In this document: piece after piece, positions 5,658-20,860 of the stretch
Layout: every line of letters starts with the position of its first letter
How positions within the stretch are numbered: the stretch's first letter is position 1
Source of the DNA: Nitratidesulfovibrio vulgaris str. Hildenborough
GTDB taxonomy: Bacteria; Desulfobacterota; Desulfovibrionia; Desulfovibrionales; Desulfovibrionaceae
Length of the DNA stretch: 32,000 bases
NCBI RefSeq assembly: GCF_000195755.1
Contig: NC_002937.3
Location: 3,390,001 to 3,422,000, forward strand
Reading direction: 5' to 3'
Translations under genes and position numbers: made by a program
The notes under the pieces: generated by a model
Seen by the model: the letters and a program-made list of their open reading frames with translations, nothing else
Told to the model about the DNA's origin: nothing
Databases searched by the model: none

Positions 5658-6365
5658 CTACTTCACCAGATAGTTCTCTATGAGCAGGTCCTCCAGCTTG
5701 CCGAGGCTCAGATAGCCGTTGATGATGGTGAGCAGGTCTTTCTTGAGCGTCTCGGCATTCGCCCCGTCCGTCAAAAAAACCAGCGACTTGTTCTTGAGGT
5801 AATAATACACCGCATCGCGGATGACCACCTTTTTGCCCTGTATCTCATGGATGAGCTTGGGGTCGGTGGCGGGGGCGGCGAACTTGCACACCAGAAAGCG
5901 AATCTGACCGTCCATGTCGCGCTGTTCGACCCAGAAGGGTTCCAGCGAGACGACCGGTGTCGATGCCTTGGGAACTTCGACGGGCGCAGGTTCAGACGGG
6001 ACGACGACGGTCTTGGGCCCTGCCGGCTTTTCTGGCGGCGTACGCAGCACGAACCACCATGTGGCACCGCCGCCGCCCACAAGCAGCAACAGCACCGCAG
6101 CCGCGATGATGAGCAGCTTGCGATTGGCGAAGAGCGACTTCTTGGCGGGCTTCTCTTCAGGAATGTCGAGCGAGAGCGAGGTCTCGGCCTTCGGGGGGGG
6201 CGGGGGCGTCTCGACTTCGGGGATGAGGAATGGCGCGTCGTCGAGGTCGAGTTCGACCTTCTCTTCAGCGCGAGACATGGCCAGCCCCGCGTCGAGAGGG
6301 GCGGTATCGGGCTGGGCCTTGCCGGAAAGGTCTTCGGGCATGCGTTTCTCTGATGCCGCCCGCAT
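5658..6365 (-). CDS. fliL: Flagellar basal-body-associated protein FliL (long N-terminal cytoplasmic extension)
   Basis: It has a single TM helix (LLIIAAAVLLLLVGGGGATWWFVL). A FliL-type C-terminal domain follows: VSLEPFWVEQRDMDGQIRFLVCKFAA...VIRDAVYYYLKNKS...LKKDLLTIINGYL. The start is uncertain. In-frame ATGs at 6365, 6341 and 6278 all have weak SD sequences. Confidence 0.8.
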   Translation of the reverse strand: MRAASEKRMPEDLSGKAQPDTAPLDAGLAMSRAEEKVELDLDDAPFLIPEVETPPPPPKAETSLSLDIPEEKPAKKSLFANRKLLIIAAAVLLLLVGGGGATWWFVLRTPPEKPAGPKTVVVPSEPAPVEVPKASTPVVSLEPFWVEQRDMDGQIRFLVCKFAAPATDPKLIHEIQGKKVVIRDAVYYYLKNKSLVFLTDGANAETLKKDLLTIINGYLSLGKLEDLLIENYLVK

Positions 6366-6416
6366 AAGGACGGGTCGGACAGGGGTGGCGCGGCCTTATG
6401 CGACCGCGCCCGGAAA

Positions 6417-6797
6417 TCAACCGAAGATCTTGTCGATCTTCTGCTTCATGGTCTCGGCAGTGAACGGCTTGACGATGTAGTTCGACACCTTGGCCTGCAC
6501 GGCTTCGATGATGTTCTCCTGCTGCGCTTCGGCGGTGACCATGAGGAACGGCATGTCGCCGAACTCTTCGCTGGCGCGCACCTTGCGAAGCAGTTCGATG
6601 CCCGTCATGTTGGGCATGTTCCAGTCGGAGATGACGAAGTCGACCCTATCCTTGTTCAGGGTCTCCCACGCGGTGGTGCCGTCGTCAGCCTCGATGACGT
6701 TGGAGAATCCAAGCTGGCGGAGGATGTTCTTGATGATCCTGCGCATGGTGGAGAAATCGTCCACGACGAGGATACGCATATTCGGATTCGCAGGCAT
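6417..6797 (-). CDS. cheY: Chemotaxis response regulator CheY (126 aa)
   Basis: This is a receiver-only protein with CheY-type motifs: LVVDDFSTMRR, the phospho-acceptor context FVISDWNMPNMTG, and VKPF. AAGGAG lies upstream of the ATG. Confidence 0.92.
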   Translation of the reverse strand: MPANPNMRILVVDDFSTMRRIIKNILRQLGFSNVIEADDGTTAWETLNKDRVDFVISDWNMPNMTGIELLRKVRASEEFGDMPFLMVTAEAQQENIIEAVQAKVSNYIVKPFTAETMKQKIDKIFG

Positions 6798-6819
6798 CTG
6801 AGGCTCCTTGCACGCTGTG

Positions 6820-7617
6820 CTAGACGGCGTCGTGCTCGCCGTAATGGTTGCGGAATTCGCGACGCAGCCTACCCAGCGCCTGTGAGTGCAACTGCGAGAC
6901 CCGCCCCTCGGTGATGCCCATGACTTCTGCGGTTTCGCGCATGTTCAGTTCATCACTGTAATATAATGACAATACCAACTTCTCTCTTGGTGTCAATTCG
7001 TCGATGAGAGAGGCCACGCGCTCGATGAGCTCTTGCGTGGCTGCGGTCTGCATGGGGTCGGCGTCCGACTGCGGGCCGCCTTCACCCGCCAGCGAATCCT
7101 GCATAGCCTCCAGCGAGAGGCACAGCTGGTTCTGCAACGCCTCAAGGCCCAGTCGTACATCCTTCTCGTCCAACCCCGTGGCCTTCTGCAAGTCTTCTTC
7201 AGTGGCGCGCCGCCCCGTCTCGTGCTCGATGCGCTGCATGGCCTCGTCAAGCTGTCGCACCCGTTGCCGCAGACTTCGCGGGAACCAGTCGAGCCTTCGC
7301 AACTCGTCGAGCATGGCCCCACGGATGCGGCTTTCGGCGTAGGTCTCGAAGCGGATGCCCAATTGCGGCTTGAACTTGCCAAGTGCCTCCATGAGACCCA
7401 GCGTACCAGCGCTGATGAGTTCGCCAAGCTCGACGTTGCGCGGCAGCTTGGCCTTCAGGCGCAGGGCGAGGAAGCGTATCTTGGGCGCGTAATGACGGAC
7501 GATGGCCTCCTTCTCCGCCGGGGCGAAGTCGGGCCATGCCGTCGTTCCGGCCTCAAGCGCCTCCCAAGGGCTAGCTGCGGAAGAGCAGCTTTTTCCAGAA
7601 GAACTTGATGTTACCAT
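6820..7617 (-). CDS. fliA: Flagellar sigma factor FliA (sigma-28)
   Basis: Sigma-70 family regions 2 to 4 are present: FETYAESRIRGAMLDELRRLDW, and region 4.2 ETAEVMGITEGRVSQLHSQALGRLR. The ATG at 7617 is the only canonical in-frame start upstream of region 2, and it overlaps the flhG 3' end by 47 nt. Confidence 0.88.
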   Translation of the reverse strand: MVTSSSSGKSCSSAASPWEALEAGTTAWPDFAPAEKEAIVRHYAPKIRFLALRLKAKLPRNVELGELISAGTLGLMEALGKFKPQLGIRFETYAESRIRGAMLDELRRLDWFPRSLRQRVRQLDEAMQRIEHETGRRATEEDLQKATGLDEKDVRLGLEALQNQLCLSLEAMQDSLAGEGGPQSDADPMQTAATQELIERVASLIDELTPREKLVLSLYYSDELNMRETAEVMGITEGRVSQLHSQALGRLRREFRNHYGEHDAV

Positions 7618-8386
7618 CCAGAGCCGCCGGAACGTCCCACGTTTGTACGGTCGCCGCCACCTGACGCACGGCGCGGCAGGCGGGGCTGTCGAGGGCCACC
7701 GAGCAGAACGGACGCTGGCTCACCACCGCCTTGCGGACGATGGGGTCGCGGGGGACGAAGCCCGCGAGGTCGAGCGATACGCCGCTCAAGAAGTGGTCGC
7801 AGGCCTTGTACAGGCGCGTGAACATCTCTTTCGCGCCGCGTTCGTCGGTGGCCATGTTCACCAGTACCTTGAAATGCTCCACCCCGTGGTTGAGCTTGAG
7901 CACCTTGATGAGCGCGTAGGCGTCGGTCAGCGAGGTGGGTTCGGGCGTGAGCACCACCAGCCGCTGTTGCGCAGCAAGGTTGAAATACAGGACATTGTCG
8001 TTGATACCGGCCCCGGTGTCCACGACAAGGTAGTCCACCCTGTCTTCCAGCGCGTCCAGCGCCTCGAGCAACTCGAGTTTCTGCCCCGTGGAGAGCGAGA
8101 GCATCTCGCTCATGCCGGATGACGCAGGCAGGATGTCGAAACCGTAGGGCGTGGGGCACAGCACCTCGTCGAGGGTCGCGCCGTCATGGAAGAGATGGAA
8201 GAGATTGCGCTGCGGGGTCAGGCCGAGCACCACGTCGACGTTGGCAAGACCGAGGTCGGCGTCAAGAAGCACGACGCGTTTGCCCGCCGCGGCGAGGCAG
8301 CAGGCGAGGTTCACGGAGAGGTTCGTCTTGCCCACTCCCCCCTTGCCGGAGGTGACGGAAAAGACCAGTGGCAGTTCAGCGTGCAT
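7571..8386 (-). CDS. flhG: Flagellar number/placement regulator FlhG (FleN/MinD-like ATPase, 271 aa)
   Basis: It has the deviant Walker A SGKGGVGKT, a MinD/ParA fold pattern (LLDADLGLANVDV) and a C-terminal amphipathic helix (NIKFFWKKLLFRS). I chose the ATG at 8386, which lies 11 nt after the flhF stop and is preceded by GTGGAG, rather than the ORF-track start at 8467. Confidence 0.88.
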   Translation of the reverse strand: MHAELPLVFSVTSGKGGVGKTNLSVNLACCLAAAGKRVVLLDADLGLANVDVVLGLTPQRNLFHLFHDGATLDEVLCPTPYGFDILPASSGMSEMLSLSTGQKLELLEALDALEDRVDYLVVDTGAGINDNVLYFNLAAQQRLVVLTPEPTSLTDAYALIKVLKLNHGVEHFKVLVNMATDERGAKEMFTRLYKACDHFLSGVSLDLAGFVPRDPIVRKAVVSQRPFCSVALDSPACRAVRQVAATVQTWDVPAALDGNIKFFWKKLLFRS

Positions 8387-8397
8387 CGGCAGCTCCA

Positions 8398-9495
8398 CTA
8401 TGGTTGACGGGCCGCGGGGCCGTCGGAGGTTCGTCCGGGCAACTGGCGCTTGAAGACCAGCCGCCACAGTGCGCTCTCGCTGGCGGAGACGAGGCTGCCA
8501 CGCAGCCCCGGCCCGAACGAGAGGGCGGACACGGGCAGACCGTTCGCCGCGGCGACGTTGACCAGTGTTCCGTAAGTACAGGCTTCGTCCAGCTTCGTCC
8601 AGACGATGCTTGCGGTTCCGGGTGCGCCGTAGCGGTTCACGAAGTCCGCCGTCTGCTGCCCCCCGCAGTGCGGGGGCAACACGAGGTGCACCGCCACATC
8701 GTCACCGCCCAGACCGAGATGGGCGAGGCGTTGCGTCAGGGTCTCGCCTCGGGCGAGTCCGGGCAGGTCGACGAAGACGCGGTCTGCGTCACAATCGAGG
8801 GCCGCGCGCATGGCACCGTCGTCGGCGGCCTCGGCATAGCCGAAACCGGAGAGTTCGGCCCAGTGGCGCAGCAGCAGCCTGCCGTTGCCGCGCTCGCAGT
8901 CGGCGTTGACCACCTGCACGCGCCCGCCTGCGGATTCCGCCCCCTGACCGCGCAGGGCCATGCGCACCAGCGTGGTCGTCTTGCCGCTGCCGAAGGGCCC
9001 GGCGAAGACGTGCACCCGCTGCGGCCACGCCTCGCGCGACCACGGCTTCACCGGCACCATGCCGGTGAGCGGTTCGAGAACCGAGGCGCCCGGCGAGGTC
9101 AGCAGCCGACGGTACAGGGACATGAGCACAGTATCCTCCACGCCCTCGCGTTCAAGGAACTCCAGTGCAAGCCGCTGGCGCGGGGTGAGCTGTTCGAGGC
9201 GCAGCCCCGGCTTCATCAGGGCGAGCAGGTGTTCCTTGATGCACGACCATTCGCGATGCCACGACTCCCAGCCGGCGGGCAGTTGCGAGGGGTCGCCCCC
9301 GTCTGCCGCCGCACCCGCCCCATGGGGCGTGCTGCCGTTGCCGTTGCGCTCCACGCCTGCGGTCACCTCGCAGAAACGGCGTCCCTCCTTGCGACCGGAA
9401 CGGGTGGAGAGAATGACGGCGTCAGGGCCGAGTTCGCTCTTTATCTGGGCCAGTACGGCCTGCGTAGAGGGGCCTGTGTACGTCTTTACCTGCAT
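8398..9495 (-). CDS. flhF: Flagellar SRP-type GTPase FlhF
   Basis: The N-terminus MQVKTYTGPSTQAVLAQIKSELGPDAVIL is a typical FlhF B-domain start. The G1 motif is GPFGSGKTTT and the SRP-GTPase pattern is DLPG...TKLDE. The start overlaps the flhA stop (TGATG). Confidence 0.9.
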   Translation of the reverse strand: MQVKTYTGPSTQAVLAQIKSELGPDAVILSTRSGRKEGRRFCEVTAGVERNGNGSTPHGAGAAADGGDPSQLPAGWESWHREWSCIKEHLLALMKPGLRLEQLTPRQRLALEFLEREGVEDTVLMSLYRRLLTSPGASVLEPLTGMVPVKPWSREAWPQRVHVFAGPFGSGKTTTLVRMALRGQGAESAGGRVQVVNADCERGNGRLLLRHWAELSGFGYAEAADDGAMRAALDCDADRVFVDLPGLARGETLTQRLAHLGLGGDDVAVHLVLPPHCGGQQTADFVNRYGAPGTASIVWTKLDEACTYGTLVNVAAANGLPVSALSFGPGLRGSLVSASESALWRLVFKRQLPGRTSDGPAARQP

Positions 9496-11606
9496 CAGTC
9501 GACCACCACGTTACCTACGGCCTGAAGCCGGATGTCAGGGGGAATCTCCGCTTGCGAGAGCACGGGGATGTTGGGGAGAAAGCGCATGAGCAACTGGGCG
9601 AGATGGGGGCGAGTGCCGGGCTGCGTGAGCACAACGGGTTGACCGTCGGTGCCCACGGCATTCTCCACCTGCGTGTTGACGCTCTGGATGAGCCGCTGCG
9701 CGGTGGATGGGTTGAGAGCGAGATAGGCGCCGCCTTCGGTCTGGCGGATGGAGTCCTGAAGAGTGCGTTCCACATTGGCGTCGAGCGTGATGATGGGCAG
9801 CGTGCCTTCGCTGTCCATGTGCGGCTTGACGATGCTGCGCGCGAGACGTTCGCGGACGTATTCGGTGAGGGTGTCGGGGTTCTTGATGGCGGGGCCGTAG
9901 TCGGCCAGTGTCTCGACCACCGAAAGCAGGTCGCGCACCGAGACGTTCTCGCGCACGAGGTTCTGGAGCACCTTCTGCACCACACCCAGTGAAAGGACGC
10001 CGGGAACCAGTTCCTCCACGGCCTTGGGGGCGTGCTTGGAGAGGTTGTCGAGCAGTCCCTGCACTTCCTGTCTGCCGAGGAACTCGGAAAGATGACGGCG
10101 GAAGACCTCGGTGAGGTGCGTGGCGATGACCGTGGACGGGTCCACCACCGTGTACCCAGCCAGCATGGCCTCTTCCTTCTGCGATTCTGGAATCCACAGC
10201 GCGGGCAGGTTGAACGCGGGCTCGCGCGTCTCGATGCCCTGAATGCGGTGGCGCGCCGTGCCGGGGTCCATGGCGAGGAGATGGTCGATGAGAATCTCCG
10301 CCGACGTCACCTGGTTGCCCTTGATGAGCAGGGCATACTGCCCCGGCTTCAGCTGGAGGTTGTCGCGCAGGTGCAGCGAGGGGATGACCACGCCCATGTC
10401 CAGCGCGAACTGACGGCGGATGGAACGGATGCGCGTGAGCAGGTTGCCGTTCTGCTCCTCGTCCACCAGCGGAATGAGGCCGTAGCCCACTTCAAGTTCC
10501 AGCGCGTCGAGGGGCAGCAGCGCCTGCACCTCTTCGGGGGTGTCGAGGCTGTCGCCCTTGCCCTTGGCGGCCTTGCCGCCAGCCCGCTTGGCGTCTCCCT
10601 GCGCTTCGTCCCCGTCGCGGTCGCCAAGCAGCTTGGCGAAGAAGAAGAGCGAGGCCGAGAAGATGAGGAAGGGCACCGTGGGCAGTCCCGGCACGAGGGC
10701 GAAGAGCAGCAGCACCCCGGAGACGAGGCGCATGGCGCGGGAGTTGTAGGTCAGCTGGCCGAGGAACTCTTCACCCATCTTCGCTTCGGAGGCAGCACGC
10801 GACACGATGATGCCCGCCGCCGTCGAGACGATGATGGAGGGGATGGTGGAGACGAGACCGTCACCGACGGTGAGCAGGGTGTAGGTGGTCAGGGCGTCGC
10901 GCCACGGCATGTCCTTCTGGATGATGCCGACAAGCAGGCCGCCGATGATGTTGATGAGGGTGATGAACATGCCCGCGTTCACGTCACCGGAGACGAACTT
11001 GCCCGCACCGTCCATGGCGCCGTAGAAGTCGGCCTCCTTGCGGATGTTCTTGCGGCGTTCGTTGGCCTCCGTCTCGTCGATGAGTCCGGCGTTGAGGTCG
11101 GCTTCGATGGCCATCTGCTTGCCGGGCATGGCGTCGAGGGTGAAGCGCGCGGCCACTTCGGCGATGCGGGTGGTACCCGCCGTGATGACGTTCTTGTTCA
11201 GGATGAACAGGATCATGAAGATGACCGCGCCGATGACATAGCTGCCGCCGACGACGAACTCGCCGAAGGCGCGAATGACCTCGCCCGCGGCGTCCGTCCC
11301 TTCGTCGCCGTGCAGCAGGATGAGTCGCGTCGAAGCCACGTTGAGCGCAAGGCGCAGCAGGGTGGTCACCAGCAGCAGCGACGGGAAGATGGAGAACTCC
11401 AGCGGCGACATCATGAACATGGAGGTGACGAGAATCACCAGCGAAAGCGAGATGCTGCAACAGAGCAGGATGTCGAGGAAGAACGTGGGCAGGGGCACCA
11501 GCATGACGAAGAGGATCGTCACCACGCCCCCGGCAAGCAGGATGTCGCCCTGTTTGGCGAAACGGGCGTAATCTATGCGGGGAGCGACACCGGGTTGCGA
11601 AGCCAT
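9495..11606 (-). CDS. flhA: Flagellar type III export gate protein FlhA
   Basis: FHIPEP family signatures are present (FPSLLLVTTLLRLALNVASTRLILL, GDGLVSTIPSIIVSTAAGIIV) along with a large C-terminal cytoplasmic domain. I prefer the ATG at 11606 (MASQPGVAPRIDYARFAKQGDILLAG) because AGGTG lies 8 nt upstream and the N-terminal length is then canonical. The ORF-track ATG at 11669 (724 aa) is the alternative. Confidence 0.9.
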   Translation of the reverse strand: MASQPGVAPRIDYARFAKQGDILLAGGVVTILFVMLVPLPTFFLDILLCCSISLSLVILVTSMFMMSPLEFSIFPSLLLVTTLLRLALNVASTRLILLHGDEGTDAAGEVIRAFGEFVVGGSYVIGAVIFMILFILNKNVITAGTTRIAEVAARFTLDAMPGKQMAIEADLNAGLIDETEANERRKNIRKEADFYGAMDGAGKFVSGDVNAGMFITLINIIGGLLVGIIQKDMPWRDALTTYTLLTVGDGLVSTIPSIIVSTAAGIIVSRAASEAKMGEEFLGQLTYNSRAMRLVSGVLLLFALVPGLPTVPFLIFSASLFFFAKLLGDRDGDEAQGDAKRAGGKAAKGKGDSLDTPEEVQALLPLDALELEVGYGLIPLVDEEQNGNLLTRIRSIRRQFALDMGVVIPSLHLRDNLQLKPGQYALLIKGNQVTSAEILIDHLLAMDPGTARHRIQGIETREPAFNLPALWIPESQKEEAMLAGYTVVDPSTVIATHLTEVFRRHLSEFLGRQEVQGLLDNLSKHAPKAVEELVPGVLSLGVVQKVLQNLVRENVSVRDLLSVVETLADYGPAIKNPDTLTEYVRERLARSIVKPHMDSEGTLPIITLDANVERTLQDSIRQTEGGAYLALNPSTAQRLIQSVNTQVENAVGTDGQPVVLTQPGTRPHLAQLLMRFLPNIPVLSQAEIPPDIRLQAVGNVVVD

Positions 11607-11681
11607 GCTTTTGACACCTGTCTGCCGGGTTTCCGGCGTTCCGGGGTTGTCTTTCGGGTTTCCGGGCATCCCCGGACGGGG

Positions 11682-12755
11682 CTACACCCCGCGCGCCTGC
11701 GGCCTGAACTTGGCGAGGCCCGCGAGAATGGCGGCCACGGCCTTGTAGAGTTCGGCGGGGATCATGTCCCCGACTTCAACACTCTTATACAAGGCCCGTG
11801 CCAGCGGCTTGTTCTCGCGGATGGGCACGTTGTGCTCGCGGGCCACCTCGCGGATGCGCTTGGCCAGATGGTCGGCACCCATGGCGACCACGATGGGGGC
11901 GGGGGCCGCGGTCACGTCGTAACGCAGCGCCACGGCGATGTGCGTGGGGTTGGTTATGACCACGTCCGCCGTGGGCACCTCCTTCAGCATGCGCTGGGCC
12001 ATGACCTTCATCATCTTCTGCCGCTGCTGCGACTTGACCACGGGGTCGCCTTCCGCCTGCTTGCGTTCGTCCTTCACCTCGTCCTTGGTCATCTTGAGGT
12101 TCTCGTTGTAGTCCCAGCGCGTGTACCAGAGGTCCACGGCGGCGATGATGACCATGGGCACGAGGGCGTACTTCACCATGCGTGCCCCCGTCTCCAGCAT
12201 GTAGACGGCGATGCCCGACATGTCGGCGAAGTAGAGGGGCAGCAGGTTCAGCATCTCCTGCTTGAGCACGATGATGGGCGCGATGCCGATGAACACGGCC
12301 TGAAGCAGGCTTTTGCCGAGGCGTATGAGCGTCTGCGGCGAAATGAACATGCGCTTCAGGGCGTTGATGACGTTGAAGCGCGACCAGTCCAGTTTGAAGA
12401 CCTCGGTCGTCCACAGCTTGCCCACCTGAAGACGCATGGCGATGAAGGCGGCAAGGCCGATGAACAGCATGATGGGCAGAAGCATGATGGCGAGTTCGCC
12501 CGCACTCCACAACAGCAGCGAGTAGACCGTCTGTTCATTGGGCGTGAAGTCGTGCGGACGCGAGAGGAAGAAACGAAAGACCTCCTGCATGTGCTCGTTG
12601 AGCACACCCAGCATGAACGTGATCGCCACAAGGCCCGCGAAGGTGGTGACCGCCTTGGAGACCTCCTGCGACTTGGCGACGTTACCCTTGTTGCGCGCCT
12701 TGTTGAGGCGTTTTCGGGTCGCCTGTTCTGTTCTGCTGGGGTCTTTCTGTGCCAT
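11682..12755 (-). CDS. flhB: Flagellar export switch protein FlhB
   Basis: The N-terminus is MAQKDPSRTEQATRKRLNKARNKGNVAKSQE. There are four TM segments and the NPTH autocleavage motif (VVITNPTHIAVALRYD). GGAAAGGA lies upstream of the ATG. Confidence 0.92.
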   Translation of the reverse strand: MAQKDPSRTEQATRKRLNKARNKGNVAKSQEVSKAVTTFAGLVAITFMLGVLNEHMQEVFRFFLSRPHDFTPNEQTVYSLLLWSAGELAIMLLPIMLFIGLAAFIAMRLQVGKLWTTEVFKLDWSRFNVINALKRMFISPQTLIRLGKSLLQAVFIGIAPIIVLKQEMLNLLPLYFADMSGIAVYMLETGARMVKYALVPMVIIAAVDLWYTRWDYNENLKMTKDEVKDERKQAEGDPVVKSQQRQKMMKVMAQRMLKEVPTADVVITNPTHIAVALRYDVTAAPAPIVVAMGADHLAKRIREVAREHNVPIRENKPLARALYKSVEVGDMIPAELYKAVAAILAGLAKFRPQARGV

Positions 12756-12821
12756 GTGTCATGTCCTTTCCGTGAAGGGCCTCGCCCCTCTCTTCGTCAT
12801 GGCCGGATACGGCCTGCCCCC

Positions 12822-12848
12822 ATATTCCGGGCACCATATCTGGGCACC
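12822..12848. repeat. Imperfect tandem direct repeat ATAT(TCC/CT)GGGCACC x2 in the fliR-flhB spacer
   Basis: Read directly from the sequence: ATATTCCGGGCACC (12822-12835) is followed immediately by ATATCTGGGCACC (12836-12848). Confidence 0.6.
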
Positions 12849-12879
12849 ACAGCCGGGCGGCGCGTGCGCCGTGGCCGCG

Positions 12880-13671
12880 TCAGACACCCTTGGGGCTTAC
12901 ACCGTGCAACAGGTGCAGCATCATGGGCGGCATTCCGATGATGAACTCTTCGATGTACTGTGCGAGAATGGTGAACAGGAGCCCCATGAAGAAGAATCCC
13001 ACGGCGATCTTCAGCGGGAAGCCGATCATCAGCAGGTTCATCTGCGGCGCGGCGCGGGCCATGAGCGCGAGGGCGAGTTCCACCAGAAAGAGCGTCACCA
13101 GCACCGGAGCGGCTATCTTCACCGCGATCACGAACATGCCCCCCGCGAGGCGCACCAGCTCATTGGCGACGGCGGGATTGGCCACCAGCCCCCCTGCGGG
13201 CACCAGCGCGAACGATTCGGCGAAGGCACGCAGCAGAAAGAGGTGCCCGTCCAGCGCAAGGAAGGTCAGCAGCGATACCATGTAGAGGAAATGCGAGGTG
13301 ATGCTTATCTGCGCCCCGGAAAGGGGGTCGGCGATGCTTATCATGGTGAACCCCATCTGGAAGCCCAGAAGCTGCCCCCCCGTCTGGATGCCAGCGAAGA
13401 GGAAGTGCACCGCCATGCCCAGCACCAGCCCCAGCACCAGTTCACTGGCGAGCATCACCACCAGTTCGAAGGGATGCGACGGCATGACAGCACCCGCCAG
13501 CGAAAGGCGTGGCCACAGGGCCATGGCCATGACGAGGCACAGGGCCACCTTCACCTGCATGGGCACGGCGTCACCGCCGAAGAAGGGCAGCAGGAACATC
13601 ACGAGGCTCACGCGCATGAAGGTGAGCAGAAAGCCAAGGGTGGTGGCCGGGTCGAAAGCGAAGAGGTCCAT
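12880..13671 (-). CDS. fliR: Flagellar export apparatus protein FliR (263 aa)
   Basis: This is a polytopic membrane protein. The N-terminus MDLFAFDPATTLGFLLTFMRVSLVMFLLPFFGG is typical of FliR/SctT. I chose the ATG at 13671 rather than the ORF-track start at 13773. The SD is weak. Confidence 0.85.
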   Translation of the reverse strand: MDLFAFDPATTLGFLLTFMRVSLVMFLLPFFGGDAVPMQVKVALCLVMAMALWPRLSLAGAVMPSHPFELVVMLASELVLGLVLGMAVHFLFAGIQTGGQLLGFQMGFTMISIADPLSGAQISITSHFLYMVSLLTFLALDGHLFLLRAFAESFALVPAGGLVANPAVANELVRLAGGMFVIAVKIAAPVLVTLFLVELALALMARAAPQMNLLMIGFPLKIAVGFFFMGLLFTILAQYIEEFIIGMPPMMLHLLHGVSPKGV

Positions 13672-13775
13672 GCCACGAGGTGAGCAAAATACGGGCCACG
13701 AACGGACATACGGCACGACGGCCTTGCCTTGCCACGCGGATTCTGGCACTGCCCGTTGAAACGCAAGGAGCATCC

Positions 13776-14599: not shown

Positions 14600-16387
<1,788 letters not shown>

Positions 16388-16415
16388 GTCGTACGCGCAA
16401 CAGGGCAGGTCACCG

Positions 16416-16461
16416 GACGCGTCTCGCGTCGAGAATCCGTTCCGATTTTTCGTGTTTTTTT
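16416..16461 (+). terminator. Candidate hflX terminator region (hairpins followed by T-rich tracts)
   Basis: GACGCG-TCT-CGCGTC (16416-16430) forms a 6-bp stem. A weaker A/T-rich stem follows (CGAGAATC...GATTTTTCG), then T5 and T7 runs ending at 16461. The geometry is not textbook. Confidence 0.35.
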
Positions 16462-16776
16462 CCAATATCCAGCGGGGACGACCTTTTTCCGGAGAGGCCG
16501 TCCCCGTTCTGCGTCCGGAGTAACGCACACACACATCCGCGCCCGTCGGGGCTGGTGCGCCATGCCGGGCATACAGGATAGGGCCGGACATGCCGGACCG
16601 AGCGTGACCGGACAACACAGGCCGAACAGGGGCTCGTCGCCCGTGGTCAGGGGACTATGGATGTGTGCATTCCGTGGCATCACGGCAGGGTTCGCGCGAA
16701 GGCCCGTGGCGACCGGAACAGACGCGTGGCATCCGGCAGACACCGGGTACTGCTCCAGCGCTACAGGTACACGGCC

Positions 16777-16813
16777 CACGTACCGGCACACGTACCGGCA
16801 CATGCTCCCGGCA
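16777..16813. repeat. Tandem direct repeat CACGTACCGGCA x2 plus a degenerate third copy (CATGCTCCCGGCA)
   Basis: Read directly from the sequence: 16777-16788 and 16789-16800 are identical 12-mers. 16801-16813 shares the CCGGCA core. The repeat lies about 50-90 nt downstream of the stop of the minus-strand 887-aa gene. Confidence 0.7.
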
Positions 16814-16864
16814 CATGATCAAGTCGCGTGACACCCGGCCTCATGCACGCCGTGCACTGCGCAG

Positions 16865-19528
16865 CTAGATGTCGCCGCCGTCAGTGTCGGAAGGTCGCCC
16901 GTCGCCGGCACCCTCCATCCTCTCCACGGGTTCATCGCGCAGCCGGGCGCATTCCGCGAGCAACTTCTCGCGCCGCACGGCCAGTTGCGCCACGTCGGTC
17001 ATGATCATGTCCATCTGCCGGGTATGGATGGTGAGATGCCCCGCCACACGCAGGTGGCGTTCCGCCGTCTCGCGGTCTATGCCCTCGAGCCGCGCAGTCA
17101 GCGCGTCACGACGCACCACGGGCGTGAAGCCGAAATTCTGGAGCAACTCCGCCACGAACTGCACCCGCAGGATGCGCCGTTCGATGTTGGCGGCCCCGCC
17201 GCGCAACTGGAACACCACATAGTTCTCCTGCGTACGTTCGCCCACCAGCGACTCCACGGCCACGAAGTGGAAGCCGAAGCGCGAATGCAGGCTGCAGTAG
17301 TTGGACGAGACCATGAAGTAGTTCTTCTCGGAGAAGAACGCCGACTGCGACGCCGGGTCGAGGTGGGGGTTCGCCGTGGCCTCGAACATGACGGACAGGA
17401 AGCCCTTGGCGTCCACGGGAGGCGGCCCCTCCCACGGGATGGCGTTCATGCCCCGCCACAACGCGCGGAAGGGAACGGACTGGATGCGGGAGGCGAGCAC
17501 GAGGGGCCCCTTGAGCCCGACGGGGAAGGCGTCATCAAGGTCGACCACCCAGAATTGCTTGGGCACGTCGCACTGCAACTGCTTGACCCGCGACGGGGCA
17601 TACGCCTGCTGCGACCCGAAGCGGAACATCTCCCCCACCGCCTGCTCATGGCAGTAGCGGGCGATGTCGTGGAAGGTCTGGCAATTGCGGGCCTTGAAGT
17701 CGGGGCTTTCGGGGTCGAAGGTCAGGGGCAGGATGTGGTGCGCGGCCTCTGCAAGGGTGCGGTGCACGGGACTGCGCGGCATGAAGTTGTGTGCGGGCGG
17801 TGCGGCGGACACGATGTCGTAGACATAGTCCGCGTAGACCACCCCGGCATCGCCGCATACCGTCACCGAGTCCACTCCCGAGAGAGCCTCCACCGCCCCC
17901 CGCAGACCGAAGACGGCGGGTTTGCCGAATTCACGGGCGACGGCACCAAGGCTACAGGCGGGCGTACCGTATTCGGCGACCACGGCGCAGGCGCGGTCGA
18001 GGACCATGCCCCACGCCGCCAGCGGGCGTTCCACCACCAGCACCCCGCCGTCGGGGAATGTGCGGATGTCCTCAAGGGTCCTGACCACATGCACAGGCCC
18101 GCACGCGGCACCGGGGCTCACGGTCACGCCGCCGCAGGCCAGCGCCTCGGCGGGGCATGAATCCTCGATGCGCTCTTCGGGGGGCAGGGGGGCCGCTTCG
18201 GGCAACAGGCGCGCATGAAGAAGCGTGAGACGCCCAGCTGCATCAAGCAGCCAGTCGACCTCCTGCCGACAGCCCGCGGCAGCCTCCACGGTGAGGGCGA
18301 GGTCGGCCACCGCGCACGCCTGCGCGTCGTCCAGCACCGGGGCATCGGGCCGTGCATGACTGTGCAGCCTGACACCCCGGGGTGCCGTGCGCCACACATG
18401 GTAGGCGTCCACGTCATGTTCCCCGGTTTCCACGGACTCGGGCAGCCCCGCCCCCGCATAGACATGCACACTGTCGTCGCGCACATGGAGGGGGTTGCCC
18501 GTGTAGGCCACGCCCCCCGCCACGGGGTCGCCCACGACGAAGAACCCTACGCACACGCAGGTGCCCGCGTCGCGCAGCCCGCGATAGCGGCGATAGATGG
18601 TGGCCTGTGGCGAATATTTGAGGGCCAGCGTGGCGCGGAAGGCGGCAAGCACACTCTCGCGGTCGGCGTCGGTGCCGGAAAGCAGCGGCCCCCACAGTGT
18701 CATCCCCCCGTCATCCGCCTGCGCGCCTTCGCCTCCGCTGATGACGGACACGAGGCCCGTCGAGGCATCATGCCCCGTGCCGGGAATGGCCCCGTCGGTG
18801 GTCAGCGGCCACACCCGGCCTCGCAGCAATACCCGCACCGGCACACCACCGGTGCGTTGACGCAGGCTGCGCATGGAGTCCATGAGTGCGTCGGCCACAT
18901 CGTCAGGCACGGGCGCGTCAAGGATGAGCGAACGGATGGATGACGACAGACCCTCGATGTTGTCGGGGCGAATACCCCCAGAGGCCTGCACCCTGCGGCT
19001 GACCTCCTCCTGAAGGCCGCCATGGCGCATCATGCGCTGGCATGCGGCTGCCGTGGCGATGAACCCTTCGGGAACGCGCACGCCCAGTGCGCCGCGAAGG
19101 CCCGCGAGGCGGGTCATGGCCGGGTCGGCCCGGTCGGCACTGTCGAGGCCGGGGTCTCCCAGAGGCAACGCCAGCGGGCCGTCCATGTCGTCGGTGCGCC
19201 CGTAGACGAGGGCGGCGACCTCCGACTGCACGGCGTTGAAACGTTCCTCGAGCGCAGCGAACCTGCCCGGCGCCAACTCGTCTAGCTGGCGCATGCACTG
19301 GAACACCTGCGTGGTGATGCGGGTACAGAGCGCACGCACGGTCTGCATGCCGAACGGGTTGACGCAACACAGCGTCAGTTCCAGTTCGGTCATCAGTTCC
19401 TGGAACTTGCCCCATGCGCCCAGAAAGAGCTTGAAGCGGTGGTAGCGCGCGGCGAAGGCGTCTTCAGGGCGCGTTGCGGACGAAGCGGCGGTCTTCTTGC
19501 GGAACGGGAGCCAGCGCAGCCATGACAT
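16865..19528 (-). CDS. PEP-synthase / pyruvate-phosphate-dikinase-like protein (887 aa) with a degenerate ATP-grasp domain, a swivel domain lacking the catalytic His, and an unassigned C-terminal domain
   Basis: Residues ~135-445 resemble the PpsA/PPDK nucleotide-binding domain (VPEGFIAT, VGFFVVGDPVAGGVAYTGNP, YAGAGLPESVETG, EVDWLLDAAGRLTLLHARLL). Residues ~465-560 resemble the PEP-utilizer mobile domain (GGVLVVERP...AVVAEYGTPACSLGAVAREFGKPAVFG). I recognise no family for residues ~575-887. GAAGGA lies 7 nt upstream of the ATG. Confidence 0.85.
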   Translation of the reverse strand: MSWLRWLPFRKKTAASSATRPEDAFAARYHRFKLFLGAWGKFQELMTELELTLCCVNPFGMQTVRALCTRITTQVFQCMRQLDELAPGRFAALEERFNAVQSEVAALVYGRTDDMDGPLALPLGDPGLDSADRADPAMTRLAGLRGALGVRVPEGFIATAAACQRMMRHGGLQEEVSRRVQASGGIRPDNIEGLSSSIRSLILDAPVPDDVADALMDSMRSLRQRTGGVPVRVLLRGRVWPLTTDGAIPGTGHDASTGLVSVISGGEGAQADDGGMTLWGPLLSGTDADRESVLAAFRATLALKYSPQATIYRRYRGLRDAGTCVCVGFFVVGDPVAGGVAYTGNPLHVRDDSVHVYAGAGLPESVETGEHDVDAYHVWRTAPRGVRLHSHARPDAPVLDDAQACAVADLALTVEAAAGCRQEVDWLLDAAGRLTLLHARLLPEAAPLPPEERIEDSCPAEALACGGVTVSPGAACGPVHVVRTLEDIRTFPDGGVLVVERPLAAWGMVLDRACAVVAEYGTPACSLGAVAREFGKPAVFGLRGAVEALSGVDSVTVCGDAGVVYADYVYDIVSAAPPAHNFMPRSPVHRTLAEAAHHILPLTFDPESPDFKARNCQTFHDIARYCHEQAVGEMFRFGSQQAYAPSRVKQLQCDVPKQFWVVDLDDAFPVGLKGPLVLASRIQSVPFRALWRGMNAIPWEGPPPVDAKGFLSVMFEATANPHLDPASQSAFFSEKNYFMVSSNYCSLHSRFGFHFVAVESLVGERTQENYVVFQLRGGAANIERRILRVQFVAELLQNFGFTPVVRRDALTARLEGIDRETAERHLRVAGHLTIHTRQMDMIMTDVAQLAVRREKLLAECARLRDEPVERMEGAGDGRPSDTDGGDI

Positions 19529-19565
19529 GTGGCGGTCCTTCGTCCTGCGTCCCCTGCGGGGGCGT

Positions 19566-19970
19566 TCAGGCCCTGTCGCCCTCGGCGAGCTTGCGGTCGA
19601 GGCGGCTCTGCTTGCAGGCGTCCTCGATCTTGTAGAGAAGTTCGTCGAAGTCCGCGGGCTTCATGAGATAACCGAACGCGCCAAGGCGCATTCCCTCGAC
19701 GGCGACGGTCATGTCCGCATGGCCCGACAGCATGATGACCTCGGTACCGGGGTGGTCGCGCCTGATGTGCTCCAGCGCGCCGATGCCCCCCATGCCGGGC
19801 ATCTTCACATCCATGACCACCACATCGACCTCATGGTCGGCAAGGTGGGCCACGGCCTCTTCACCGCTTGCCGCCGTGGCGGTGAGCATGCCCCGCCGCG
19901 CAAGCCGCAGCGAGAGCATCTCTGTGCATTCGGTCTCATCGTCGACGAGAAGGACCCGTATGCCGTTCAT
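19566..19970 (-). CDS. Receiver-only response regulator (134 aa)
   Basis: The canonical REC residues are present: D10-D11 (LLVDDE), D54 (VVVMDVKMPGMGG), S82 (IMLSGH) and K104 (YLMKP). There is no output domain. GGAGA lies 6 nt upstream of the ATG. The stop is 37 nt upstream of the 887-aa gene. Confidence 0.9.
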   Translation of the reverse strand: MNGIRVLLVDDETECTEMLSLRLARRGMLTATAASGEEAVAHLADHEVDVVVMDVKMPGMGGIGALEHIRRDHPGTEVIMLSGHADMTVAVEGMRLGAFGYLMKPADFDELLYKIEDACKQSRLDRKLAEGDRA

Positions 19971-20004
19971 GGCACGTCTCCGAGTTCAGGCGTATGGTTC
20001 TGTA

Positions 20005-20033
20005 TTTCTATCGCTCTTCGGGCATTGCCACAA
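20005..20033 (-). promoter_or_regulatory. Candidate sigma-70-type promoter for the response regulator / PEP-synthase-like pair
   Basis: On the minus strand this reads TTGTGG - 17 nt - TAGAAA, inside a locally AT-rich patch about 30 nt upstream of the ATG at 19970. This is pattern-based only. Confidence 0.25.
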
Positions 20034-20194
20034 GGGGCGTCCGTAGCGGGCGGGCAGACATCGGCCCGACCCTCCGGTCGGACACCGCATCGTGCTGCCA
20101 TCGGGAGGGGGTGCCCCCCGCGAACACGGAACAGGGGCGCGGCCACTGCACGGCCGGTGACGGGCCCGCCAAAGGTGCGCAACGGCCCCGCGCG

Positions 20195-20860
20195 CTAGCC
20201 GTGCCCGCCCCCTGCGCGCACGCACGCATCCTCGTGCAGGACGTGATGCATGCAGTAGCGCCATACACGCCACGCAAGGTAGCCCATCACCAGCCCCACC
20301 ACCCAGCCGGCGAGGATGTCACTGGGGTAGTGCTTGCCGAGGTACAGCCGCGACCAGCCAACCAGAAGAGGCACGGGCAGCAGCCACGGCCGCAGCAACG
20401 GCACGGCGAGCATGATGACGAGACAGACAGCCATGGAATTGGCGGCATGCGACGACACGAACGATGAGCCCTTCACCGCCGTCGGCACGAAGTCGGGCGG
20501 CGTGATGCTCCATGCGCCCTCGTCCACCATGTGCACGCCCGCAAGGGCTTGCATGGGGCGCAGCCTTCCGGCCTGCCCCTTGATGACGTTGCATGTGGCG
20601 TCGGTGACGCCTGCGGCAAGCCCCGCCAGCAGCAGCACGGCTGCCACGCGGCGCCAGAGGGGCCGTTCAGGCAGAAGGGCCGCGCCCTGCGGGCCTGAAC
20701 GACGTCGCAACCACAGGAAGCCTCCGGCTACGACAGCCAGCAGAAGCCACAGGGCCATGCCCGACACGGCGGGCATGAGCACGTCGAGAAGAGGGGTGCG
20801 CCACGTACCGTTGGCGAGCCTGAAAAGCGCGAGATCCCACGAAGGGGTGGCGAAGGGCAT
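20195..20860 (-). CDS. PAP2 superfamily membrane phosphatase (undecaprenyl-diphosphate / lipid phosphatase-like)
   Basis: All three acid-phosphatase motifs are present: KGQAGRLRP (KxxxxxxRP), SFVSSH (PSGH-like) and SRLYLGKHYPSD (SRxxxxxHxxxD). The protein has multiple TM helices. Confidence 0.85.
   Translation of the reverse strand: MPFATPSWDLALFRLANGTWRTPLLDVLMPAVSGMALWLLLAVVAGGFLWLRRRSGPQGAALLPERPLWRRVAAVLLLAGLAAGVTDATCNVIKGQAGRLRPMQALAGVHMVDEGAWSITPPDFVPTAVKGSSFVSSHAANSMAVCLVIMLAVPLLRPWLLPVPLLVGWSRLYLGKHYPSDILAGWVVGLVMGYLAWRVWRYCMHHVLHEDACVRAGGGHG

Follow-up and report, generated by a model that had tools for sequence, protein, structure and literature searches.

Among described proteins, the closest to the one analysed here are the dikinases. 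Phosphoenolpyruvate (PEP) synthase, PpsA (TIGR01418 and NF005057; 2ols from N. meningitidis), combines an ATP-grasp domain (PPDK_N) and a swivel domain, which carries the phospho-accepting histidine in the motif GGxT(S/C)HAA(I/V)(I/V)AR, with a PEP/pyruvate-binding TIM barrel (PF02896). Small-molecule dikinases such as rifampin phosphotransferase (RPH) and HpeHI (5hv1 and 9goj) use the same ATP-grasp and swivel-histidine mechanism with an acceptor domain that is not a TIM barrel, and activity was abolished in HpeH H581Q and in RPH H827A (PMC12167813). Here we analyse a gene in a stretch of 32,000 nucleotides from Nitratidesulfovibrio vulgaris str. Hildenborough (NC_002937.3, positions 3,390,001 to 3,422,000; hereafter the window) that encodes a PpsA-like protein of 887 residues. 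This protein lacks the residues to bind or activate ATP and to carry phosphate, and in our judgement it is probably a catalytically dead pseudo-dikinase whose two terminal domains, N- and C-terminal, do its work in a module linked to a response regulator (RR).

Profile matches and structural models divide the protein into four parts, namely N-terminal helices, a degenerate ATP-grasp domain, a swivel domain without its histidine and a novel C-terminal domain, encoded as follows.

16865..19528, minus strand: pseudo-dikinase gene, a member of clade A (see below); open reading frame (ORF) of 887 aa
19154..19528, minus strand: N-terminal extension, about residues 1-125, with three long helices in the AlphaFold2 (AF2) model (21-53, 61-85 and 91-109)
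18164..19153, minus strand: ATP-grasp (PPDK_N) domain, about residues 126-455, with its fold kept and its nucleotide and Mg residues replaced
17831..18145, minus strand: swivel (PEP-utilizers mobile) domain, about residues 462-566, recognised by Pfam PF00391
16919..17806, minus strand: undescribed alpha/beta domain at the C-terminus (about residues 575-870), standing where PpsA has its PEP/pyruvate TIM barrel

Both dikinase domains score well above their Pfam cutoffs (PF01326, PPDK_N, 96.1 bits against a gathering cutoff of 27; PF00391, PEP-utilizers, 42.8 bits against 23.1, with all 72 model positions matched by residues 491-562). The full-length AF2 model (pLDDT 85.2, pTM 0.79) has PpsA 2ols, HpeI, RPH and PPDK as its top Foldseek matches; taken singly, the ATP-grasp domain matches the ATP-binding domain of RPH (5hv6, TMt 0.71) and the swivel domain the phosphoryl-carrier domain of PPDK (2fm4, TMt 0.63). 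PpsA is the best match in both sequence and fold, with the ATP-grasp and swivel domains in the same order and the segment AREFGxPA conserved after the histidine column. Unlike PpsA, however, the window protein carries the novel C-terminal domain in place of the PF02896 barrel, as well as an N-terminal helical extension, and it scores far below the equivalog cutoffs of the PpsA models NF005057 and TIGR01418 (127.3 bits against 598 and 121.3 against 739.75). RPH, in turn, holds its substrate domain between the ATP-grasp domain and a C-terminal swivel domain, whereas the order here is ATP-grasp, swivel (462-566) and a domain of 300 residues; the acceptor domains share no similarity in fold, and the rifampin-phosphotransferase-like model NF041857 gives 70.6 bits against a cutoff of 999.

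The N-terminal extension is specific to the family, being absent from PpsA and PPDK, and its consensus, RYHRFKL...PFGM...VFQ, is conserved in an alignment (A1) of about 70 full-length relatives obtained by a word-indexed search. Together with near-invariant residues of the C-terminal domain, it places the window protein in an RR-linked family of PpsA-like proteins. Some public records, represented by cluster members of 773 and 803 residues (P0421 and P0420), set the start later, leaving out as much as residues 1-114 (19187-19528); the long form of 887 residues is likely to be correct, because residues from about 20 to 114 form helices conserved across the family.

A preliminary description of this DNA had pointed to a serine in the place of the catalytic histidine within 17849-18136, a span that corresponds to residues 465-560 and thus to the swivel domain.

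17951-17953, minus strand: codon AGC of Ser526, in the phospho-histidine column of the swivel domain

The substitution is borne out. On the minus strand the codons read gcc tgt agc ctt ggt gcc (A-C-S-L-G-A), with AGC as residue 526. When the protein was compared with the PDB by phmmer, ...EYGTPACSLGAVAREFGKPAVFG aligned gaplessly with N. meningitidis PpsA (2ols), the query segment running from vvaeygtpa through the Cys-Ser pair to lgavarefgkpavfg; because the alignment has no gaps, Ser526 falls on the catalytic histidine, and the window protein departs here from the phospho-accepting motif of PpsA. The regulatory threonine of PpsA is replaced by alanine in the same alignment. In the AF2 model residue 526 begins the helix 526-534, matching the position that we take the catalytic histidine of PPDK to occupy, likewise at the start of a helix.

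Might the alignment be out of register, so that some other histidine occupies the catalytic position? The odds of this seem to us vanishingly small. The segment matched by PF00391, residues 491-562, contains no histidine in the translation, and therefore no shifted register can provide one, including the different register that the preliminary description had allowed for. AREFGxPA and G521, which flank the histidine column, are invariant across the family in a column census. The nearest histidine, H479, lies 47 residues upstream of Ser526 and is also present (consensus GPVHxVR) in relatives that have the canonical histidine. Classical histidine-mediated phosphotransfer is consequently impossible in this protein, as had been proposed, since its histidine column holds Ser526 and no histidine occurs in 491-562.

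The relatives divide cleanly at the histidine column of alignment A1, and the groups referred to below are as follows.

Clade A (P0001-P0034): identity to the query at least 45%; R, Q, S or M in the histidine column
Clade B (P0035-P0071): identity at most 42%; H in all 35 aligned
Fusions to a dual-specificity phosphatase (DSP) (P0072 and P0073): identity 26%; H
True PpsA (P0074): identity 23%; H

Clade A, to which the window protein belongs, comes mostly from Desulfovibrionaceae; clade B is large and mostly from Thermodesulfobacteriota, and the window protein is 38-42% identical to its members over more than 95% of its length. The histidine column of clade A holds Arg in 21, Gln in 10, Ser in 2 and Met in 1 of the 34 sequences, against His in 35 of 35 in clade B. 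The residue before it is Ser, Cys, Gly or Asn in clade A (Cys in 3/34), so that neither Ser526 nor Cys525 is conserved, and the pair C-S recurs in the orthologue that is 81% identical (P0002). An alignment of close homologues had been suggested as a check on whether serine or another non-histidine residue is kept at this position; the non-histidine state is indeed retained throughout clade A, but serine itself is not (2/34). A neighbour-joining (NJ) tree recovers clade A as a monophyletic group lying within the histidine-bearing sequences. The loss of the histidine marks an old and conserved paralogue clade; distant homologues keep the residue.

The ATP-grasp domain has been remodelled as thoroughly. 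The most conspicuous changes are two replaced motifs and, between them, an insertion.

18806..18823, minus strand: RGRVWP, residues 236-241, replacing the nucleotide-binding motif RSSAxGED (column census)
18686..18697, minus strand: LWGP, residues 278-281, replacing SFAGQ (column census)
18719..18796, minus strand: insertion loop between RGRVWP and LWGP, residues 245-270 (AF2 pLDDT <50)

Only R236 and R440 remain of the ligand set of PpsA (GGK, RSSxxxED, SFAGQ and E...Q.R); both arginines are kept in the two clades. In the columns of the G-x-K motif, all 34 clade-A sequences have Asp (D135) and 28 of 34 have Ala (A137), with Lys in none, against Gly and Lys in 35/35 of clade B. R-G-R-(V/L)-W-P occurs in 34/34 of clade A, where 35/35 of clade B and PpsA have R-S-S-A. 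Similarly, clade A has (L/I)-W-G-P, with W279 and P281 in 34/34, where FAGQ stands in 34/35 of clade B and in PpsA. The column of the Mg-ligand Glu holds Thr or Asp in clade A (D425 in the window protein) and that of the Mg-ligand Gln holds His, Met or Leu, with Gln in five (H438 in the window protein); clade B has Glu and Gln, respectively, in 35/35. We take the lysine of G-x-K to correspond to Lys22 of PPDK, the Glu to E323, the Gln to Q335 and the arginine pair to R92 and R337, and the mutant PDB entries 1jde (K22A) and 2dik (R337A), which are among the Foldseek matches, are in line with this numbering. The insertion at residues 245-270 is rich in Gly, Ala and Asp and lies where the nucleotide-binding loop would be; within A1 it is found only in the lineage of the window protein and its Nitratidesulfovibrio relatives.

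These replacements extend across the clade and are correlated, and they have installed a new invariant set, D135, G237-R238, W240-P241, W279 and P281. With the nucleotide and Mg residues gone, therefore, no phosphoryl donor could be activated. Clade B, exemplified by P0047 and P0048 of Nitratidesulfovibrio (annotated 'PEP/pyruvate-binding domain-containing protein'), has the same four-part architecture and the same association with a stand-alone RR; unlike the window protein, which has none of them, it keeps GxK, RSS, FAGQ, the Glu, the Gln and the histidine, the last in the canonical motif GGxAGH, and by analogy with characterised dikinases it is presumably active.

A wider survey gave the same picture. 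When 1.84 billion representatives were searched exhaustively with HMMER, 682 matched at E <= 1e-30 (clusters at 50% identity, whole protein), and 145 sequences were aligned, comprising the window protein, one PpsA as outgroup and 143 of the 50% representatives with the best scores. The histidine is present in 129 of the 145, all of which keep GK, RSS, (F)AGQ and E/Q/R wherever these columns are aligned; of the 11 full-length representatives that lack it, 10 fall in a single NJ clade. The histidine and the ATP site have thus been lost in close association, and the window protein can neither activate ATP nor carry phosphate. The one representative outside that clade, P0386, has Asp in the histidine column and ISS and YDSQ in place of RSS and FAGQ, with GK and E/Q/R kept; it is apparently an independent loss of the histidine inside the histidine-bearing part of the tree.

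The preliminary description had left a choice between a non-catalytic scaffold and a chemistry based on Ser or Cys, and the first of these is the one that fits the evidence. Under the second, Ser526 or Cys525 would serve as a phosphoryl or acyl carrier and the protein would still be an enzyme with a swivel mechanism. Serine and cysteine carry phosphate in other enzyme families, and the C525-S526 pair is shared with P0002. The low counts of the two residues in clade A nevertheless speak against it, as do the sister lineages, which have Arg, Gln or Met following Ser, Asn or Gly, and the loss of Lys, SS, FAGQ, Glu and Gln for ATP, which leaves no means of donor activation. In addition, the protein has no PEP-binding TIM barrel, some relatives have dispensed with the whole swivel domain (see below), and in HpeH the change from His to Gln, a residue found in this column in clade A, is itself inactivating. 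We therefore hold Ser/Cys chemistry to be very unlikely.

Is the gene merely decaying? By the Nei-Gojobori method, comparison with the syntenic orthologue P0002 (locus L088) gives a ratio of nonsynonymous to synonymous substitution rates (dN/dS) of 0.15 for the whole gene, 0.18 for the ATP-grasp domain, 0.17 for the swivel domain and 0.075 for the C-terminal domain. The gene is under purifying selection, which is tightest on the C-terminal domain. A decaying gene, a strain-specific lesion or a sequencing artefact in an ordinary PpsA-like dikinase would agree with the presence of histidine in distant homologues (at most 42% identity), but we give it scarcely any weight. Besides the low dN/dS, the ORF of 887 codons is intact, the AF2 model is confident, synteny with the 81% orthologue is kept, and the histidine-less state is found throughout the clade, down to about 45% identity. 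That the serine is no sequencing error, as had been argued from its codon, is confirmed by the occurrence of the exact protein in 199 index blocks built from public assemblies, by the inclusion of N. vulgaris DP4 (WP_011791422.1) in its 90% cluster, and by the C-S pair of P0002. Since this closest orthologue also has Ser, the substitution is not a lesion of one strain. The clade census, the dN/dS values and the gapless alignment, taken together, effectively exclude Ser/Cys chemistry, gene decay and misalignment.

What, then, is being selected for? The C-terminal region, residues from about 570 to 887, has no match among Pfam and NCBIfam families, and a PDB profile search gave nothing beyond profile position ~590. 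Its AF2 model is of good quality (pLDDT 84.1) and of alpha+beta type; against the PDB, Foldseek returned a best E of 0.013 and TM of at most 0.21, and the I-CreI and T3SS-chaperone-like matches were discarded as noise. A divergent TIM barrel was ruled out by the secondary structure and the lack of matches, and the PEP/pyruvate-binding barrel of PpsA is accordingly missing by Pfam, PDB profile and AF2 fold. The last ~300 residues look like an undescribed domain family. The window protein retains all of the residues that are near-invariant in the family (C616, H620, D621, R624, H627, R750, G752, H754, N769, G777, G778, R788 and D840). Invariant motifs in the domain include C-x3-HD-x2-R-x-CHE, SRFGxHF, GGAA(N/D)xxRR and HTRQxDM. 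Mean identity within clades, which for the swivel domain is 0.59 in both A and B, is 0.69 in A and 0.52 in B for the C-terminal domain. The real functional constraint is in this separate domain and not in the swivel domain.

Natural deletions point the same way. A search with a profile of the C-terminal domain by itself (A3) found stand-alone proteins of 365-393 residues in Desulfovibrio spp. (P0119-P0123, P0126 and P0127). In two of these, P0123 and P0126, what is left of the N-terminal extension runs straight into the C-terminal domain; both nest in clade A, with a mean identity of 50% to A against 37% to B. P0123 (L094/L095, 7001-8098) sits in the clade-A slot, beside an RR, a paralogue of 879 residues with both dikinase Pfam domains, and a dCache histidine kinase. 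As P0123 and P0126 have neither ATP-grasp nor swivel domain, the dead domains are dispensable, at least in those lineages. A further protein of 255 residues, P0131, has a receiver N-terminus followed directly by the final ~190 residues of the C-terminal domain; this may be a real fusion of RR and C-terminal domain or an artefact of deletion or assembly, and we do not place trust in it.

Pseudokinases and other pseudoenzymes retain a fold while losing catalytic residues, stay under purifying selection and often form a pair with an active paralogue. Clade A resembles pseudoenzymes in general in each of these respects, and on sequence evidence the window protein qualifies as one in the operational sense, with a kept fold, catalytic residues lost across the clade and purifying selection. 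The loss of the ATP-grasp residues, the clade-defining loss of the histidine and the constraint on the C-terminal domain go beyond what the preliminary description had noted.

One might instead regard the protein as a re-purposed ligand sensor, in which the remodelled ATP pocket binds a new small molecule or protein segment and the ATP-grasp and swivel region signals allosterically to the C-terminal domain, so that it would be a functional sensor and no mere scaffold. All 34 clade-A sequences share the replacements D135, R238, W240, P241, W279 and P281, both dikinase domains are themselves under purifying selection (dN/dS 0.17-0.18), and the swivel domain is as conserved in clade A as in clade B, all of which such a sensor would account for. 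On the other hand, some clade-A derivatives do without both domains, and invariant Trp and Pro residues would equally suit the filling of a pocket and the stabilisation of a fold. We consider the sensor unlikely, although worth keeping in mind.

The pseudo-dikinase gene does not stand alone.

19566..19970, minus strand: stand-alone response-regulator (receiver) gene (Pfam Response_reg, 1.2e-29), 37 bp upstream of the pseudo-dikinase gene

This gene, on the same strand, is a probable operon partner. Its translation has what we take to be the receiver motifs of CheY, namely the acidic pair D10/D11, a putative phospho-acceptor Asp53 (in VVVMDVKMPG), S82 and K104. A stand-alone receiver gene immediately upstream is a recurrent feature of homologous loci; the pairing of RR and clade-A gene recurs in L088, L001, L092 and L014, and receiver genes commonly precede clade-B and clade-C members in other orders, some with overlapping stop and start codons. 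A larger cassette, in the order (RR), clade-A gene, dCache histidine kinase, RR and clade-B gene, is the normal setting of clade A and is found in Nitratidesulfovibrio (L001), in a D. piger-like locus (L086) and at the locus of P0004 (L092), and a histidine-bearing paralogue lies 0-5 kb downstream in 12/12 clade-A genome loci with enough downstream flank. In the window tblastn found no second paralogue; only the RR and clade-A genes are left, followed by a convergent hflX, and the same broken arrangement is found at the 81% orthologue (L088).

We propose the following model, built by analogy with PpsA, PPDK and RPH. Clade-B proteins would transfer the beta-phosphate of ATP onto the swivel histidine and then to something bound by the C-terminal domain. 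They would do so under RR control. Their genes usually lie directly downstream of a stand-alone RR, often with a dCache histidine kinase. In clade A, the phospho-histidine would have been removed in one ancestral event and the ATP and Mg ligands exchanged for the new invariant set, with both folds kept and the N-terminal helices and C-terminal domain under constraint. The product, which cannot be phosphorylated, would serve the RR-controlled module as a partner, a competitor or a scaffold. In most genomes it would act alongside the active paralogue encoded 2-5 kb downstream; at this locus it would have its own RR only.

Several points weigh against the view that the protein is a dead partner of this kind. 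Instead of simply filling the former ATP pocket, the two new invariant Trp residues, with the Arg and the Asp, might make up a new site for a ligand or even for catalysis. The proposals on the acceptor of the family and on the role of its C-terminal domain draw on sequences, models and gene order, and the putative partner role of clade A on gene order. The 32-kb window holds no clade-B gene, and the NJ grouping of the divergent histidine-less representatives may be inflated by long-branch effects. We nonetheless favour a catalytically dead pseudo-dikinase acting through its terminal domains, at the strength given at the outset.

A third subfamily has the dikinase and C-terminal domains fused to a dual-specificity or PTP-like phosphatase, in proteins of 1190-1270 residues (P0072 at L091, 1793-5479; P0155-P0164). 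The receiver gene upstream of P0072 overlaps its start, and unfused relatives of this subfamily, of about 850 residues, are very numerous (3655 matches at E <= 1e-10 among the scored candidates). A homologue search with P0072 gave no D. vulgaris entry among the matches listed.

Related experimental work in the literature searched is confined to the nitrate cluster DVU0245-DVU0251 of D. vulgaris Hildenborough and D. alaskensis G20, which is also the only source of phenotype data (Korte et al. 2014, PMC4001038). It encodes a histidine kinase (DVU0248), a receiver-only RR (DVU0247), a PPDK_N and swivel protein of 744 residues (DVU0246) and a dual-specificity phosphatase (DVU0245), and strains in which a transposon disrupts DVU0246 or DVU0247 are resistant to nitrate (PMC4001038). 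By gene order, this cluster mirrors the RR genes and dikinase-DSP fusions of P0072 and P0073; it is in the same species as the window gene but at a separate locus. A possible relationship of DVU0246 to the family described here is a lead drawn from gene order and not a result. In the literature searched, we found no earlier description of a PEP-utilizer pseudo-dikinase, and nothing specific on RR-linked PpsA-like proteins or bacterial dikinase and DSP systems apart from Korte 2014 and the HpeHI paper.

The remainder of the window holds genes of varied function.

5658-13773, minus strand: flagellar export and regulation cluster with fliL, fliA, flhG, flhF, flhA, flhB and fliR, 3 kb from the RR and pseudo-dikinase pair
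Elsewhere in the window: pgi, an aminotransferase gene and sfsA; hflX; genes for PAP2 and an M23 peptidase, tilS, dnaJ and greA; an RND efflux system

The flagellar neighbourhood is also kept on the contig of the 81% orthologue (L088). Between the convergent hflX and pseudo-dikinase genes lies a non-coding gap of about 470 bp (16388-16864), in which no terminator site was reported, the three candidate sites all being inside the gene; a promoter and terminator scan of 16300-20300 gave nothing above shuffled expectation. Long antisense ORFs at 16985-18160 (plus strand), 14669-16201 (minus strand) and 10032-12941 (plus strand), of 391, 510 and 969 residues, lie over real genes; such frames are common in high-GC DNA and do not count as evidence of genes. 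In a PADLOC defence scan the dikinase-like protein had no match and the RR only weak receiver-type matches.

What does the presence of a probable pseudo-dikinase in this family imply? Database labels such as 'phosphoenolpyruvate synthase' or 'pyruvate, water dikinase' are wrong for the whole family, because it has no PEP/pyruvate domain, and doubly so for clade A, which also lacks the ATP site and the histidine. Counting these proteins as PpsA would mislead metabolic reconstructions of Desulfovibrio and of gut Desulfovibrionaceae (D. piger and others). The cassette of an active and a dead paralogue with a dCache kinase and receivers points to an uncharacterised signalling output in Thermodesulfobacteriota. 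We tentatively entertain, as a speculation that may well prove wrong, that the family is an undescribed signalling device of sulfate reducers and their relatives, with clade A as its pseudo-dikinase regulator. If so, the RR would control, or be phosphorylated by, an ATP-dependent dikinase, whose swivel phospho-histidine would pass its phosphate to the C-terminal domain or to a target bound there, and dual-specificity phosphatases would reverse the mark. Clade-A proteins would either use the conserved C-terminal domain to form heteromers or vie for the same target and RR, which would make clades A and B comparable to pairs of pseudokinase and kinase; the window gene would then stand for the non-catalytic side of a pathway with ties to the nitrate cluster phenotype.

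We read the window protein as a probable pseudo-dikinase inside an uncharacterised PpsA-like family with a novel C-terminal domain. Clade A amounts to a natural experiment, indicating that function resides in the N-terminal helices and in the C-terminal domain of novel type. Pseudoenzymes are common; this one brings to light a large RR-linked family, so far mis-annotated, in N. vulgaris, a genetically tractable model.

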